From the sequence record NC_047749.1: DNA of 64,000 nt. One strand, given 5' to 3'. The stretch is from Escherichia phage DT571/2. Positions within the stretch are counted from its first letter, which is position 1, and each line of letters starts with the position of its first letter. The translations under genes were made by a program, and so were the position numbers. Below the pieces are notes generated by a model. That model did no database searches, was not told where the DNA came from, and saw only the letters and a program-made list of their open reading frames with translations. Positions 25,894 through 33,855 of this stretch are shown here, piece after piece.

Positions 25894-28197
25894 TTATTTC
25901 GCTGCCTTCAGCGCGGCTATCTCTGCCTTCAAATCCTCGATTTGCTTATTGAGATACTGCACACAACCCATCAAATCCATAACGATCGGGTTTACATCCA
26001 CCGACGGCCTGTCGCGGGTCTTACCACCGATAATAGCGTTAGTCTCTGGGTCCACCTCCACATCGTACGTCTCTTCTCGATGTTTGATGTATTGAGGTGC
26101 AATCGCTTCAGCCTCCTCGGCAATTATGCCGAAGCGGACGCGCTCCTGCACATCGTCCTTATACACGTAGTTCACCATGCGCATTTGTTCAATACGTGCA
26201 ACCGCTTCTGTAACGTCTGCATTGACAATATCTTTCTTAAAGTCCCGCCCCGATGTGCCTTGCAAGGCAAGAACACCACCAGATGAAGGCCAGTTGATTG
26301 TAATGCCAGTGCCGTTTCCCTTCTCAAAATATTTATAGATCTGGTTACTATTGATATTAACCGAATCCCACATCGTGCGGAAATTACCAGCCGGGACTGA
26401 ATCTTTTGCGTTGTGTAGAACGAAAGACTTCACCGGACCGTCGGTAGTCGGGCGAATGGTTATATCACGGGCCCACACTACTCCGCCTGTTCCCGCTCCG
26501 GGGATCTCCACGACGGTATCTCGGTACGCGCCCGACGCGTCATATGATTGCAACTTAAAATTGCCCGAAGCGTCGTTAATCCCCATACGCCAGCGTACTT
26601 TATCGGCGGAATCCGCCCAACATACACCGTCAAAATCGGAGTTCACCGAGTTCACAACTATACTATTCGGTATAGTTAGTTTACCTGTTTCGTCAAAATC
26701 CAGATTCGCGCTTCTTTGTGTGGTACTGTTCGTTACGGAAATACGAGCAGAATAGTTACCGCCGATATCGGCACGGGCACAGAAACTAGCTTCAGCCTCA
26801 TTGGCGCCACTAATCTTGTACAATGAGAATATGTTACCACCTTGAGCAATTGTGCCGTCAGCTGGACGTGTCGCATCACCATTGATCACACTCCAAGACG
26901 TATTCGCCGCCACGAACCCGCCTGACGCTCGAATAACCCACACACCCATGAAGTTATTTGGACGCAACTCCGTTACGGTCCGACCATAGATCGCGCTGAC
27001 CCTCGAGGCGTCCAGGTTAATGATGCCGTAGGAGACCGCGCCGTTACTAACAGTTAGGTTGCTTGGCGTCCGATATTGCGAATCCGCGCCACCAGACCCA
27101 TGGAACGCGCCACTTTCACCGTTGATAATACTTGCGGACCCGCCGCCGTGTAATTCGACGCGGCCTGTGATGTTAGGTGCTCCTGATTCGTAGATATACC
27201 CATCGTTGCCACTTTGCCCGCCGTCCCCCCGGCAGAACAAGCCGAATATTGACCCAGGCTGAACACCATTACGGTCTGGCACTCGGAAGGTCGTTGTGCC
27301 GTCACCAGTAGAATACTTGCCGCGCTGATTTGGGTTAGCCAGCCAGGTAGCGTCACTAATTGGCGATAGCATTTGCGCATACGCCCAGAGTTCGGGCCAG
27401 TCAGCACGATTCAACAACTGACCATCACTCACCACCTCGTACGGCTGAATGTATGCGCGACTATCCCGCAGGTGAAAGTCACCTACCCCATAGTTCATAA
27501 CGCCATTCATGGTAGGTCCAACTGTACCAGTGTTAATCTTATTCTCTACCCAACGTTTGGTTACAGCATCGTAGTCCCCCACAGGGTCCCCAGCAAGAGG
27601 GGTGGACCCTTGTGGTCTTACAACGTCCCATAAAGCTTCTCTATTATTTACCCCGGTACCCCCTTGTTCAACCGGGAGTGCTAACCACTCATTCTCTGTA
27701 TCACTATAAACTCCCCAAGTACCATTATTTTGAATAGTTAATCTAGAATTCTTATCACCACTGTAGATTATGGTTTCTGTTTCGGACTCCTGACTAAATC
27801 TATCGAGTTCCAGTGCGGTTTTAGCCCCCTCTAGTGTAGAAGAACCAGTACCACCTTGAGCAATCGTAATAGCCTTAGTAAGCGCATTTAATTCTGTAAT
27901 ATCATTATTAGCACCTTTAGCAGCTTTACTATCTATGGTGATATTCATACTACCAAGAGCAGTATTGATATTCCCAATAGCCTCTACATTGTTCTGAATG
28001 GAACTATCAATACCAGTTAAACGAGTATTTAATTCTTCTTTATCTATAGTGTAGTTAGAGATTTGTAGGTATTTAGAAGTTAGTGCAACAGCACCAGCTT
28101 CTCCATCAACAGAGAAAACGCCTGCAACCGCAGCATCTCTGTTAACTACAACGTATGGCGCCATTGCGCCGGATTTAGGCATTAAATTACGTGACAT
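25894..28197 (-). CDS. Tail fibre protein with C-terminal intramolecular-chaperone (S74-like) domain; second L-shaped fibre protein (LtfB-like)
   Basis: 767 aa; C-terminus ...DVNPIVMDLMGCVQYLNKQIEDLKAEIAALKAAK resembles the auto-processing chaperone domain of tail fibres; shares an almost identical ~90-aa block with the 1039-aa fibre. Confidence 0.7.
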   Translation of the reverse strand: MSRNLMPKSGAMAPYVVVNRDAAVAGVFSVDGEAGAVALTSKYLQISNYTIDKEELNTRLTGIDSSIQNNVEAIGNINTALGSMNITIDSKAAKGANNDITELNALTKAITIAQGGTGSSTLEGAKTALELDRFSQESETETIIYSGDKNSRLTIQNNGTWGVYSDTENEWLALPVEQGGTGVNNREALWDVVRPQGSTPLAGDPVGDYDAVTKRWVENKINTGTVGPTMNGVMNYGVGDFHLRDSRAYIQPYEVVSDGQLLNRADWPELWAYAQMLSPISDATWLANPNQRGKYSTGDGTTTFRVPDRNGVQPGSIFGLFCRGDGGQSGNDGYIYESGAPNITGRVELHGGGSASIINGESGAFHGSGGADSQYRTPSNLTVSNGAVSYGIINLDASRVSAIYGRTVTELRPNNFMGVWVIRASGGFVAANTSWSVINGDATRPADGTIAQGGNIFSLYKISGANEAEASFCARADIGGNYSARISVTNSTTQRSANLDFDETGKLTIPNSIVVNSVNSDFDGVCWADSADKVRWRMGINDASGNFKLQSYDASGAYRDTVVEIPGAGTGGVVWARDITIRPTTDGPVKSFVLHNAKDSVPAGNFRTMWDSVNINSNQIYKYFEKGNGTGITINWPSSGGVLALQGTSGRDFKKDIVNADVTEAVARIEQMRMVNYVYKDDVQERVRFGIIAEEAEAIAPQYIKHREETYDVEVDPETNAIIGGKTRDRPSVDVNPIVMDLMGCVQYLNKQIEDLKAEIAALKAAK

Positions 28198-28236: not shown

Positions 28237-31200
28237 TTATTTAGCTTCGAGTTCAGTAATCTTGGCTTCCAGAGCCTCAACCTTATCCATCAAAGCGAGG
28301 ATAGCTTCGTGGTGGAGGGCTGCTGCAACACCGTAGGTGTCTACACCTTTAACGTCCGGGACTACCTCACCATCACGTAGATTCATGGAACCTGCATTGA
28401 ATATAGCATCCGGGAAGCGGTTCTCCACATCCTGAGCGATGAACCCGTAGTTCCTCTTAGAGTTATCCTGCTTGACACGCCACGATACACCCTTGATGGT
28501 ACGCATAGCGCCGAGAGGGTCCGGGATGCGTACAACATCTTCCTTGATGCGCTCGTCAGAAGTAGTGCTCCACCCACCCGGACATACCGCATTACCAGCC
28601 TGCATGAACTGGAAATACCTCGGAGTACTACCACTCACACTGGTCATTATGGTCATATCGCCATTACGTTCGGAGTATACTCGCCCGTACATGGCACCAC
28701 TTGGTGATACGAAGTCCAAAAATCCGGAGGTGTAACTACCACTACCTGTGATACGCACAATATTGCCTTTGGCAATCATATTGCCCGGTGTGACTAAGTC
28801 CCCGCTACTATTAAAGTCAAAGCTCCGAGTAACACCCAGAGTAGAGTTGTACACGGATATACGGGCAGCATACGTACCACCTATCGTGCCTACCATACGG
28901 AAATCTGCGGAACCTTCCAGCTGACCACCAACACGGTACTCACTAGTAACACGACCGCCAGTAACAGACGTTGTTGCAGGTGGCAGTGTGGCATCACCGT
29001 TAATCACAGACCACGACGTATTCGCAGCAACAAATCCGCCCGATGCACGAATCACCCAAACGCCTACGAATGAGTTAGGTCTTACCTCGGAAGCACGCCC
29101 ATAAGCCGCATTGACTCTAGATGCCCTGAATGTGTATGTGTTATATCTTGCGTTACTCCCCTCTGCGTTGCTAAGACTAATTGCAGAAGTTCCGTTATTA
29201 GAAGATGCAAATGCACCTGACGGAGCTCCTGCGAGATAACTATAAGAAGTAAAATCCCCTGAGATATCAGGGAGGCCGTTTTCAAGAATACCGCCATAAT
29301 TGCCGCCCGCATCACCACGCCCGAACAACCCCTTGATTGAACCTGTTTGAGTACCGTTACGGTCTGGCACGCGGAAAGTAGTAGAGCCATCACCTGTTGA
29401 ATACTGGTGTCTGTTCCAAGGGTCAGCAAGCCAATCAGCATCAGAAATAGGGGAAAGCATTTGAGCATAAGCCCACAACTCGGGCCAGTCAGCCCTATTA
29501 AGAAGTTGTCCATCAGAAACGACTTCATATGGTTGAATATACGCACGACTATCACGAAGGTGGAAATCACCTACACCATAGTTCATGACACCATTCATTG
29601 TTGGCCCTACTGTACCGGTGTTAATCTTATTCTCTACCCAACGCTTAGTAACAGCATCGTAGTCGCCAACAGGATCACCAGCCAGCGGCGTTGAACCAAC
29701 GGGTCGCACGTTAAGCCATGCGGCAGCACGGTCTGCCAAATCCGAAAGGTTATTAGCTTTTAATAAGTAATCAGTATCTGACTGAGTTTTAGCGTCTGCT
29801 AAAGCAGAATCAACCTCCATCTTAGTATACGTGGTAGCAATATCAGCCTTATCTGCTAAAGCAGAATCAACCTCCATCTTAGTATACGTGGTAGCAATAT
29901 CAGCCTTATCTGCTAAAGCAGAATCAACCTCCGTAGTACTATATAACTCGAGGGCTATACGGGCGTCTTCTTTAGTTGTTGCACCAGTACCGCCTTGATT
30001 AATACTAACAGTACCTTGTAGTGAGGTATCAATTTCAACGTTACCAGTTATATCATCTGGAGAGATACCATTAACTGTCACAACATAAGGAATCTGATCT
30101 TTAATAACGCCAGCATCTTCTTCGCCTTTAGTTGGTGCACGGAATGCCTGTCCTTGCATCATATCTGGTAGACGGAAGGTTGTAGAGCCATCACCCGTAG
30201 AGAAGTAAAGAGACGCACCGGCTTGCCATTCAGCTTCTGGTACAGAAGGAATTAAGCCAGCCTCAATAGCCTCCCAAGTATCTGGATAGTCTGCACGAAG
30301 AACTTCACGACCATCAGCAGGAAGAACACCAGGGTAGCCAACACCTGAATCTTTATCATAAGGGAACCAAGTAACTTCACCCAGCCATAAAGAGGGGTTA
30401 CCACCAGGAAGGGTGATCTGTACGTTACCCCCATCATCTGCACGAACGTTATTAACAGAAACTAACTTTTGCTCTGTTTCTACTAACTCTAATACTGGAG
30501 TCTCAGCAGTTCCAGCTACTTTGTACCACCCATATTTTGAGTTAGTTTGGTTCCAGACTAGAACCTTTTCGTCTAGCACACGGTTTACAACATCGGCATC
30601 AGCTTCTGCTTTAGTCTTATAAACTTTGATAAAACCAGAAATATCTACTTTATCAAGTTTACTATCAACAATCTGAGTTGCACGATCTGCCTCAGCTTTA
30701 GCACGATCTGCCTCAGTAGTAGCATCGATAGCTTTATCACCGGCTTCAGTAGCAGAACCAGCAGCATTAGTTTCAGAAATCTTAGCGTTTAGTTCTGATT
30801 GCCTTGCAGCAGCAGCATGTTCGCCAGCAGTGGTAGCAGCAGCATCAGCTCCATCTTTAGCTGTTTCAGCACCAGTCTTAGCAGCTTCTGCGGCTATTTG
30901 AGCTTGTTGCGCAGCTGTTTTAGCTTGTTCAGCTAGTAAACGACTTTGTTCAGCATTCTGCGCTGCCAATTCTGCAGAGTCTCTAAATCCCTCTGATTCT
31001 TGCGCAGAAGCTGCAGAATTATCTGCACTGCTTTGGGCTAAACCCGCCTGTCTTTCTGACTCAGTAGCAGAGGCAGCAGATTGAGTTGCTGAAGCTTCGG
31101 AAGCACCAGCATGAATACCCGCCTGAATCTCTGAATCTTTAGCGTTATTTTCAGAGTCCTTAGCTGCTATTTCAGAACCTCTAGCAGCAGCAGCGGATCC

Positions 31201-31356
31201 TGCAGAGGCCTCTACAGCAGCAGTTAATTCACCAGCAGTAATAGAACTAATAGAATTACCTAAAACTACTGTATATTTAGGATACTTACTAGCAGTAGTT
31301 GTAGTGTCATCTATGTTCAGAATCTGCTGTACAATAATTTTAGTTTTAAGTGCCAT
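28237..31356 (-). CDS. L-shaped tail fibre protein (pb1/LtfA-like) with C-terminal chaperone domain
   Basis: 1039 aa; Ala-rich coiled-coil N-terminal region; 19-aa tandem repeats; C-terminus ...ILALMDKVEALEAKITELEAK chaperone-like; adjacent to the collar gene. Confidence 0.75.
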   Translation of the reverse strand: MALKTKIIVQQILNIDDTTTTASKYPKYTVVLGNSISSITAGELTAAVEASAGSAAAARGSEIAAKDSENNAKDSEIQAGIHAGASEASATQSAASATESERQAGLAQSSADNSAASAQESEGFRDSAELAAQNAEQSRLLAEQAKTAAQQAQIAAEAAKTGAETAKDGADAAATTAGEHAAAARQSELNAKISETNAAGSATEAGDKAIDATTEADRAKAEADRATQIVDSKLDKVDISGFIKVYKTKAEADADVVNRVLDEKVLVWNQTNSKYGWYKVAGTAETPVLELVETEQKLVSVNNVRADDGGNVQITLPGGNPSLWLGEVTWFPYDKDSGVGYPGVLPADGREVLRADYPDTWEAIEAGLIPSVPEAEWQAGASLYFSTGDGSTTFRLPDMMQGQAFRAPTKGEEDAGVIKDQIPYVVTVNGISPDDITGNVEIDTSLQGTVSINQGGTGATTKEDARIALELYSTTEVDSALADKADIATTYTKMEVDSALADKADIATTYTKMEVDSALADAKTQSDTDYLLKANNLSDLADRAAAWLNVRPVGSTPLAGDPVGDYDAVTKRWVENKINTGTVGPTMNGVMNYGVGDFHLRDSRAYIQPYEVVSDGQLLNRADWPELWAYAQMLSPISDADWLADPWNRHQYSTGDGSTTFRVPDRNGTQTGSIKGLFGRGDAGGNYGGILENGLPDISGDFTSYSYLAGAPSGAFASSNNGTSAISLSNAEGSNARYNTYTFRASRVNAAYGRASEVRPNSFVGVWVIRASGGFVAANTSWSVINGDATLPPATTSVTGGRVTSEYRVGGQLEGSADFRMVGTIGGTYAARISVYNSTLGVTRSFDFNSSGDLVTPGNMIAKGNIVRITGSGSYTSGFLDFVSPSGAMYGRVYSERNGDMTIMTSVSGSTPRYFQFMQAGNAVCPGGWSTTSDERIKEDVVRIPDPLGAMRTIKGVSWRVKQDNSKRNYGFIAQDVENRFPDAIFNAGSMNLRDGEVVPDVKGVDTYGVAAALHHEAILALMDKVEALEAKITELEAK
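29795..29941. repeat. 57-bp tandem repeat (about 2.6 copies) inside the tail-fibre gene
   Basis: Unit tctgctaaagcagaatcaacctccatcttagtatacgtggtagcaatatcagccttatc starts at 29795, 29852 and 29909; encodes repeated TTYTKMEVDSALADKADIA. Confidence 0.85.
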
Positions 31357-31778
31357 TATTGAGTTACTCCATCGCTGATGTATACTTTACCTTCCATAAT
31401 ACGGAAAGAACTGACTTCAGAGCCAATTACATCACGAGTCATTAGGATATCATAATAACCCGCAAAGCGTTGTCTAGGGTTATACTTATCACGTTCTTTA
31501 GATGCTTTTTCACCAATATTAGTAACGTCTGCAACGGAAAGACTAATTGCAGCAGCACCTTGAGCAGCATCAATAATACTAGTAGTAAAAGATGCCAAAG
31601 TTTCCGCGTTCTCGTCTAAGCTAGACTTAATAGTTCCACGAAGTGAATAACCTGCTAGATTAACAGGTGTTTCAGAAGGAGGGTATACACTATCATCAAC
31701 ATCCATAAATTGCATGATAAGACCATAAGGCACTTTCTCATCAACAACAATATCAATTACTCTATTTTCAGTACTCAT
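31356..31778 (-). CDS. Tail collar/fibre-attachment protein (T5 p132-like, 140 aa)
   Basis: Position between pb4-like and tail-fibre genes; 140 aa as for T5 p132 (from memory). Confidence 0.5.
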
Positions 31779-31782
31779 TATT

Positions 31783-33855
31783 TTACCTTATATGAATATA
31801 TCCGTTTACTAGATCTATTTTCATCTTATATTGAGCTTCAGGATTTCCTGATAGTGCGGCAGCCCTATCATATATAGTATTAACACCTATTTGTGATAGA
31901 AAAGCATTCCCAGCTACTATTTTATCCGCTGTAATAGTACCATTAACTATCATATTACCATGAAGTACCATAGCTGGGTTAACCCAACCAGAACCGTTCC
32001 ATTGTCTAGTAAATGCAGTTTGAGGTGAATTACTATTAAATTCAGTTAATACATCATATTTAACTGGGGGAGAACCGAAGTTACTTTGAAAGAAAGAATT
32101 AGCTTGTCCATCGTCCCAACCACTTAAACCTGCTATACCTACAGAATACATCCCAGGACCACGTTGTCCATCATGCCCTATAGTACCTTCAGTACCGCTC
32201 CACTGAACTACATCCGACCAACTAGTACCCTCTAATAACCTATTAGTAACTGGATCAAGTGTACCCGTAGTCGCATAGATATTTTGTGTCATATCTGTGC
32301 GGTTAGGTGGAGTTTTTGACCAACCCGGAGGCGGATAATCCTGCTCTAGTGGTTTAGCAGGTAGAGATGTTGCTAACTTATAAACAAATACTGTTTGCTT
32401 ACCTTGCATACCAGTACCCAGATCTACATCGCCATTAGGAGTTCCAATAACTACTCCACTAGAAATACGTAGCACATCACCATCATAACGAATCCACTGT
32501 GTGGCATTACCAATGTCTAATTTAGCTTTGGCAGAGGTATTATCCATACCCATCCAAATACCTGAGTTATTATCCCCCCAAGATTTACCCTGAGTGTAAA
32601 TTGCCGGATTATCCTCACCAGATAAGTTAGTCATGATAAAGTTCGCAGCATTAATATCTCTAGTAATTACTTTACCATCAACGTTAACAACACGGTTTAT
32701 AGGGTCAAAAGAAATGGGTGCTTTTCCTTCTTCATCTAGCAGACCAATGTTAATAGCACCAGTAGCTGCGTCGATTAAGAATGTCTGTTTCCAGATTTCT
32801 CCCTCTTTCATGCTGCCCTTAATAAAGGCATAATTAACATCAATACCCGTCTCATTGACAAAACTGTTGTCTAGAGGAGTATCTTCATTCAATATAAATG
32901 TTGCAGGAGCTGATTCTGTTATATCTTGCCTATTTGGTCCCCAGGCAATTGATGATACCTTAAAAGTATGCTCAACTTTCCATGGGAATGATATAATCGT
33001 TGCAGCCCTAGCAGCCCCAACGTTTATCTTTTGAGCTTTAGCCCAACCAGTCCTAGCATATTCTTCAGAGTTTATATAAGTAACCAGAAATTCACGGACG
33101 TTAGCACCCGCCCCACGTTCCCAGTCCCATTCTATTCTAACATCATAACGTTCCTTACCATCTGCAATTCGTGCAGCTTTAAAGGCAATGTTAGTAGGTG
33201 CAGTAGGCGGTACGAAATTATAAGCTACAGTGAAAACGCTAGGATATTCATAATAACCAGATGAGTCAACTGTAACACCATCTGGCATCGTAACTTGGCC
33301 AGATATTCTGATCTTATAGTCACCAACAGGAACACCACCAAATTTGATAGTAGGTCCCAGTGCGCCTATATAATATTTAACCCATTCACTATCTTCTGAT
33401 GCAGTACTTTTTAATTCAATAGTGCAGTAACTAGCTTCACCAGTTGTCTCTACAACAACTATGGGAGCACCAACACCAACGTCAACGGGTTCTGATTCAG
33501 ATCTTGCTGCAACAATTATTGGCTTTTCCTTTGTTCTAAAGTTAGTTTCATTAGAGAGGTTGATACCAATCTTAGCTTCCAGTAACTCTGAGTCAATAAT
33601 TGAGTCATAGAAAGCCCCCTGAATCTCATAGGAGGTAGAGGGGGTTAGATTATTAATCATTACGAAGAAAGTATCTACACCGGTGTAATCACGTCTATCT
33701 ATACTTTCTTCTACTTTTAACCAAAAAGATCTACCAATAACATCATAATCAGTATAAATGGAGTGCTGGACATAAGCCAAAGTATATCCAGTCATTATAC
33801 TATTTAAGACCATTTTGGCTGGTGCATTATTTGAAATCATTAAATGGATGCCCAC
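31783..33855 (-). CDS. Tail tip/baseplate protein (T5 pb4-like, 690 aa)
   Basis: Size and synteny (downstream of the pb3-like gene). Confidence 0.55.

Follow-up and report, generated by a model that had tools for sequence, protein, structure and literature searches.

We analysed a 64,000-nucleotide stretch of the genome of Escherichia phage DT571/2 (NC_047749.1; hereafter the window), in which a perfect 57-bp tandem repeat lies inside ltfA, the gene for lateral (L-shaped) tail fibre protein A. The gene occupies 28237..31356 on the minus strand and encodes 1039 amino acids (aa) that are 100% identical to DT571/2 LtfA (P0230, "L-shaped tail fiber assembly [Escherichia phage DT571/2]"). A "block of tandemly repeated 19 a.a. 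motifs" was described in this protein by Golomidova et al. (2016, Viruses 8:26, PMC4728585). The published unit is VDSALADKADIATTYTKME, present in wild-type DT571/2 as two copies and one incomplete copy, and both the unit and the copy state in the window agree with it: two complete units and one incomplete. The LtfA block that these authors reported for DT571/2 and DT57C is the same object as the window feature, with no difference in the feature itself. Since the repeat and its expansion by one unit are already in the 2016 literature, the observation is correct and not new. We consider it very probable that the feature is this published block of the proximal lateral fibre protein, and that it consists of modules of a trimeric fibre that are gained or lost as whole units in frame.

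The exact repeat tract spans 29795..29932 on the minus strand. Tandem Repeats Finder reported a period of 57, 2.4 copies, 100% matches and 0 indels (score 276) for it, and in a separate repeat search the 57-nucleotide (nt) copies at 29795-29851 and 29852-29908 were 100% identical, with a partial third copy from 29909. The longest exact run at an offset of 57 measures 81 nt, a length that chance cannot account for in 64 kb. The original prediction of a perfect duplication with two copies and a partial third was thus borne out. It had placed the repeat at 29795-29941, of which the start holds and the end lies slightly beyond the exact tract, which ends at 29932; at the protein level the slightly divergent first unit starts at 29937.

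The whole array covers 138 bp and is in frame within the ltfA open reading frame (ORF). Translation of the repeat confirmed a series of 19-aa shaft or linker units in tandem, and the protein reads, in the orientation of the gene, ...ALELYS, TTEVDSALADKADIATTYT, KMEVDSALADKADIATTYT, KMEVDSALAD, AKTQSDTDY.... In-register protein alignment placed unit A (TTEVDSALADKADIATTYT) at 29881..29937 on the minus strand (ltfA nt 1420-1476) and the incomplete unit C (KMEVDSALAD, followed by the non-repeat AKTQSDTDY) at 29794..29823, likewise on the minus strand. Unit B (KMEVDSALADKADIATTYT; 29824..29880, minus strand, ltfA nt 1477-1533) lies between them and is the one doubled in the mutant described below. 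Units A and B differ in their first two codons and are alike at 54/57 nt and 17/19 aa. The unit that had been predicted from the sequence, TTYTKMEVDSALADKADIA, differs from this 19-aa unit in phase only.

Each unit also contains a short palindrome, TCTGCT-TT-AGCAGA, in the codons for SALAD, which would be compatible with a role of the repeat in the DNA or RNA, as a hairpin or as a signal for regulation or recombination, and not in the protein. We regard this as highly improbable. Folded as single-stranded DNA, the array was no more stable than shuffled sequences (z = -1.1; 28/200 shuffles fold as well), the palindrome is absent from Yersinia phage phiR2-01, where the 19-aa periodicity is kept, and the 19-aa motif is conserved as a protein sequence in more than 1000 protein clusters whose codon choices are unrelated. 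The palindrome is probably a coding coincidence. Hairpin-promoted slippage was also considered and dropped, given that the folding of the array did not differ from that of the shuffles (z = -1.1).

The identity of LtfA and its neighbours show that the region is the locus for the lateral tail fibres of DT571/2, a T5-like phage, in line with the earlier assignment of the repeat to a tail-fibre gene. The gene order is pb4-ltfC-ltfA-ltfB, all on the minus strand, and is identical in DT57C. Four PB4 Pfam domains mark pb4 (31783-33855, minus strand). The collar protein gene ltfC (31356..31778, minus strand; 140 aa) was recognized by PF23926 LtfC (E=2.3e-15), and cryo-electron microscopy (cryo-EM) of DT57C showed that the LtfC collar anchors the LtfA N-termini (PMC10713586). 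On the other side, ltfB (25894..28197, minus strand) encodes a second fibre protein of 767 aa that branches from LtfA; its product, like LtfA, ends in a Peptidase_S74 chaperone domain. In LtfA this C-terminal intramolecular chaperone (PF13884) covers aa 933-984 (E=1e-10). DT57C LtfA (PDB 8hqz chain d) aligns with the ORF end to end (E=0, 73% identity) and is near-identical to it in the N-terminal part, and aa 232-453 match the 'putative tail fiber' of PDB 7z47.

Comparison with homologues delimited a 98-aa linker in LtfA, from GGTGATTKE to AAAWLNVRP (aa 455-552; 29701..29994, minus strand), in which the repeat sits. A module resembling phiEco32 gp14 and the SU10 fibre lies on one side of the linker and the distal receptor-binding module on the other. 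Close to the linker is the ltfA copy of a direct repeat shared with ltfB (29420..29697, minus strand), which is 79% identical to 27332-27609 at a spacing of 2088 bp. A second such pair, 27224-27317 and 29312-29405, is likewise 2088 bp apart. These direct repeats have 74-79% nt identity and near-identical proteins (VRPxGSTPLAGDPVGDYDAVTKRWVENKINTG...), and they were flagged as a recombination hot spot in 2016 (Golomidova et al. 2016, PMC4728585). Elsewhere in the gene, an imperfect 21-bp (7-aa) tandem repeat at 30676-30729 on the minus strand (2.5 copies, 78% matches) encodes TEADRAK/AEADRAT at LtfA aa ~210-228, within an N-terminal coiled-coil region rich in Ala and Glu, and resembles a heptad-level duplication in the helical shaft.

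Copy number in a laboratory mutant and in natural relatives

The lab-selected mutant DT571/2-ABF carries three copies of the unit and one incomplete copy, and a deletion of 2088 bp has fused its LtfA to LtfB (PMC4728585). We compared its sequence (KU159289) with the window and found exactly one more perfect 57-bp unit, as the unit matches at ltfA nt 1453 and 1510 in KU159289 and has one such match in the window. With one 57-bp unit removed, the ABF sequence corresponds to window ltfA from nt 1 to ~1775 followed by the 3' part of ltfB, and this reconstruction contains 1 mismatch (nt 824) in 3375 nt. The deletion measures 2088 bp. At its junction 12 nt are identical (ltfA nt 1770-1781, ~29576-29587), and this site falls within the 79%-identical direct repeat of ltfA and ltfB (29420-29697 and 27332-27609). 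The 2016 authors noted that the 19-aa block directly follows the phiEco32 gp14-like region, the proposed LtfB contact, and speculated that the duplication in ABF compensates for the LtfA-LtfB fusion; DT530(1), with a similar fusion and without the duplication, has a poorly functional fibre (PMC4728585).

The only sequence with 3.4 copies comes from this separately sequenced locus, and perfect tandem repeats do trouble assembly, as the run of N exactly inside the homologous repeat of phage Kenya-K45 illustrates. The true wild-type copy number might then differ from that of the window, for example 3.4 as in ABF, if assembly had collapsed the repeat. Such an artefact is very improbable. The array is only 138 bp long and below ordinary read length, the wild type (2+1) and ABF (3+1) were compared directly by the original authors (PMC4728585), and 2.4 units are also present in each of DT57C, TrudiGerster, phiR2-01 and the DT530 locus, which was deposited separately.

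The natural carriers in the phage collection, namely DT571/2, DT57C, DT530, TrudiGerster (Bas27) and Yersinia phage phiR2-01, have 2.4 units each. The units themselves have diverged to very different degrees. Units A and B of phiR2-01 are alike at 35/57 nt and 12/19 aa, with a longest exact run of 8 nt, and they share 33-36/57 nt with the window units while keeping the 19-aa periodicity. Because these units have diverged and the architecture has nevertheless been kept, the 2.4-unit arrangement is old and is maintained by selection at the protein level. DT57C and DT530 have three nt differences between copies (KTEVD and KVEVD for KMEVD) and a longest exact run of 51 nt.

TrudiGerster has a perfect 81-nt repeat of its own. 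Compared with the window, each of its 3 units carries GAG>GAA and the two full ones also carry GCT>GCC, so that each of the two phages has a perfect repeat of its own. The presence of the same substitutions across paralogous copies points to concerted evolution, in which the copies are homogenised within each genome by gene conversion or by contraction and re-expansion. The array turns over in nature and returns to 2.4 units. In TrudiGerster (L037 2501-2899, compared with 29795-29937 of the window), ltfA is ~85% identical to that of the window overall and 96-98% identical across nt 1201-1600, which include the repeat; identity falls to ~74% right downstream of the repeat. This suggests a mosaic, recombinational boundary just downstream of the block.

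Homogenisation that preserves perfect 81-nt repeats in both DT571/2 and TrudiGerster would also fit a contingency locus resembling phase variation, in which high-frequency switching of copy number produces fibre-length heterogeneity in every lysate and serves as host-range bet-hedging. The recovery of a +1 variant in a single selection experiment (PMC4728585) and the other duplications at the same linker are in keeping with such a locus, and bacterial contingency loci built on simple-sequence repeats share with the LtfA block a repeat-mediated, recombination-independent change of length in a surface or adhesion gene. Known contingency loci, however, have short tracts of many copies, whereas this unit is long (57 bp) and present in only 2.4 copies; its changes are always in frame and would provide no on/off switch; and the natural copy number is conserved in all carriers. 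Since DT57C, DT530 and phiR2-01 keep the protein architecture with diverged copies (longest exact runs of 51 nt in the first two and 8 nt in phiR2-01), perfect DNA identity is not required. A contingency function is therefore improbable.

The original prediction was that fibre length would change between isolates, and it proposed PCR across the repeat in independent phage stocks or related genomes, where an invariant copy number would argue against functional length variation. The interpretation is essentially right, since the extra unit of the laboratory mutant ABF shows that copy number can change. Among the natural carriers of the block, however, the comparison returned the invariant 2.4 units throughout the four independent lineages available. 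The natural variation in length that we saw was confined to sister lineages, which have other tandem duplications at the linker, and to an unrelated metagenomic phage, in which a homologous 57-bp unit differs in copy number.

Duplications at the same linker and a widespread 19-residue module

We measured the linker in LtfA homologues as the segment from GGTG to WLNVRP, which ranges from 75 to 117 aa. The homologues were found with the full-length LtfA as query, as queries with 178-aa and 321-aa segments gave only proteins of up to ~560 aa. DT571/2, DT57C and TrudiGerster have a linker of 98 aa (19-aa unit, 2.4 copies) and the ABF mutant one of 117 aa (3.4 copies), compared to 78 aa in the metagenomic proteins P0234 and P0235, in which the linker is unexpanded (VYTKAETYEKSELYTQTEIDDKLVEV). 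Different units are duplicated at this position in other phages: a 25-aa unit is present twice in SP3-like (103 aa), a 13-aa unit three times in Kenya-K36/K42 (104 aa), and a 30-aa GGTGAST... unit twice in P0236 (75 aa) and three times in YZU-L1 (P0183; 105 aa). The translated locus of mar003J3 also has the 30-aa unit three times, in the same arrangement as YZU-L1. A scan of IMG/VR with the LtfA protein segment returned only one locus that covered the repeat region (SP3-like). In Salmonella phage Kenya-K45 (L038, ~locus 2700), a run of N and a frame disruption lie exactly inside the homologous tandem repeat, probably an assembly gap due to the repeat.

These comparisons indicate that in-frame tandem duplications have arisen repeatedly in the linker and that natural length polymorphism exists there. 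The expanded linkers cluster near 100 residues (98-105, compared to 75-78 aa), and three T5-like lineages may have converged on a preferred spacer length by means of different repeat units. A more far-reaching version would make the linker an evolvable length tuner. The 19-aa unit in 2.4 copies, the 25-aa unit in two or the 13-aa unit in three, and the 30-aa unit in three would each independently have reached 98-105 from 75-78 aa; concerted evolution would keep the DT571/2-type units identical at the DNA level, so that a unit could be gained quickly when the fibre architecture changes, and the extra unit of ABF would be truly compensatory. We consider this version rather unlikely as a whole.

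The 19-residue unit extends well beyond these phages. A HMMER search with LtfA aa 440-600 against 1.84 billion representative proteins returned 1121 clusters at E<=1e-3, many of which show 5-17 matched stretches. Among the best 150 of the 1121 clusters, 19 residues was by far the commonest spacing of successive Y-T-K-x-E-x-D motifs (299 cases), followed by 22 residues (22 cases), and these proteins contain up to 12 consecutive units and up to 18 motifs each. The secondary motif spacings are 22, 25, 32 and 38 residues (P0086-P0229). A degenerate-codon scan of metagenomes and IMG/VR also detected the motif in many unrelated phage fibres. Generic 'YTKTEVDTALxxKADxxTT' arrays in fibre and surface proteins of uncultured phages resemble LtfA in their period of 19, in the motif and in near-perfect tandem DNA repeats with variable copy number. 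They differ from it in that they are usually longer, occur in unrelated proteins and are without a curated Pfam family. For the LtfA block, PHROGs returned generic 'tail fiber protein' families only, and we propose the YTKTEVDTALxxKADxxTT module as a candidate for a new curated repeat family.

One such array is found in the fibre of an unrelated metagenomic phage of ~44 kb, where perfect 57-bp units encode EVDTALSSKANSSDVYSKT and differ in copy number between samples. Two contigs of this phage (L046 and L062) have 100% identical 600-nt upstream flanks, but one of them has 2 perfect 57-bp units and the other at least 3.7; two further relatives (L059 and L064) have 2 and at least 3 units. These differences in copy number fit slippage of such units in nature.

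Likely fold and proposed role of the repeat unit

The spacing of the LtfA unit recalls that of HylP1, the tail-fibre hyaluronidase of a Streptococcus prophage (PDB 2C3F). For this protein Hartmann et al. (2016, eLife 5:e11861, PMC4786415) assigned the register abc-bbb-efghijk-abc-bbb-efg-bbb-efghijk to the sequence IDG-LAT-KVETAQK-LQQ-KAD-KET-VYT-KAESKQE. When mapped manually onto this register, LtfA LAD-KAD-IAT-TYT-KMEVDSA has the same 3+3+3+3+7 = 19 spacing as HylP1 LQQ-KAD-KET-VYT-KAESKQE. The LtfA unit LADKADIATTYTKMEVDSA and HylP1 LQQKADKETVYTKAESKQE are identical at 9/19 residues in the register abc-bbb-efg-bbb-efghijk, V and L of the LtfA unit land on core positions h and a, and its xxTKxE motif fits the published beta-layer consensus (x-x-T-K-polar-D/E, or KAD). 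Because of the shared spacing, the identities and the core V and L, the most likely fold of each LtfA unit is a segment of alpha/beta coiled coil, with one beta-layer at TYT, another at KAD, and 10 and 3 helical residues between them. HylP1 is a homotrimeric phage fibre, as LtfA probably is, and has the same 19-residue pattern; in HylP1 the pattern occurs once, compared to 2.4 times in LtfA. No homology beyond the motif was detectable between the two proteins, and 2C3F was absent from the PDB matches of the LtfA block.

A PDB search with a canonical version of the repeat matched NadA, a coiled-coil adhesin (4cjd, E=0.004); matches to the GCN4-fusion constructs 7o9v, 7oaa and 7oac were weaker (E=0.07-0.4). 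With the block itself as query, the PDB search returned only DT57C LtfA, which is unmodelled over the repeat, and a short tail fibre with a weak match of the NLSDL type. Each beta-layer reportedly moves the chain 120 degrees around the axis of the trimer, and for this reason whole units should be insertable without breaking the three-fold symmetry. One extra unit would add roughly 2.5-3 nm of shaft, an estimate based on ~1.5 Å per residue. Cryo-EM of DT57C showed that the N-terminal helices of LtfA form a trimer (PMC10713586).

Taken together, we propose that a 57-bp unit corresponds to a single 19-aa structural module in the trimeric fibre and that the block, as two units and an incomplete one, makes up most of the 98-aa linker. 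The linker joins the proximal module, for which the 2016 authors proposed the role of LtfB docking region, to the distal receptor-binding module. As 81 bp are exactly repeated at an offset of 57 bp, units can be gained or lost in frame, and we infer that replication slippage or unequal recombination adds and removes whole units in this way. The lab-selected mutant ABF, with its LtfA-LtfB fusion, has fixed one such gain, from 2.4 to 3.4 copies. In nature the array turns over and its copies are homogenised in each genome, yet all isolates with this block retain a length of 2.4 units. An extra unit would lengthen the shaft and leave the three-fold register undisturbed; a functional effect of the length is a speculation of the 2016 authors. 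In the literature on slippage of fibre repeats in general, we found nothing specific.

Several points weigh against this proposal. Among the natural carriers, which comprise just four independent lineages, none was found with another copy number of the block. In ABF the added unit could be a neutral hitch-hiker rather than a compensatory change, as the 2016 paper offers compensation as speculation only, and the copy-number differences among metagenomic contigs could in part be assembly errors in perfect repeats. As to the fold, there is no solved structure over LtfA residues 470-530, since PDB 8hqz models the N-terminus only (PMC10713586). A single-sequence AlphaFold2 prediction of the monomer gave one continuous helix of low confidence (predicted local distance difference test, 49.5), which neither shows nor excludes beta-layers. 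A Pfam scan of the block and the canonical repeat array (E<=10) returned only noise, with E>=0.097.

As a 2016 paper had already described the repeat and its expansion by one unit, the finding alone adds little, and what we add to the literature is modest: the copy number in relatives, the signature of concerted evolution, the other duplications in the linker, the breadth of the 19-residue module and the register match. The block nevertheless offers a clean case, tractable by experiment, in which fibre length changes in whole structural modules. The copy number is kept despite turnover of the units, and similar linker lengths arise through different duplications, which suggests that selection acts on the distance from the branch point of the fibre to its distal receptor-binding domain. 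This could guide the rational engineering of branched T5-like fibres, and the search results point to an abundant 19-residue fibre module that has no Pfam family.

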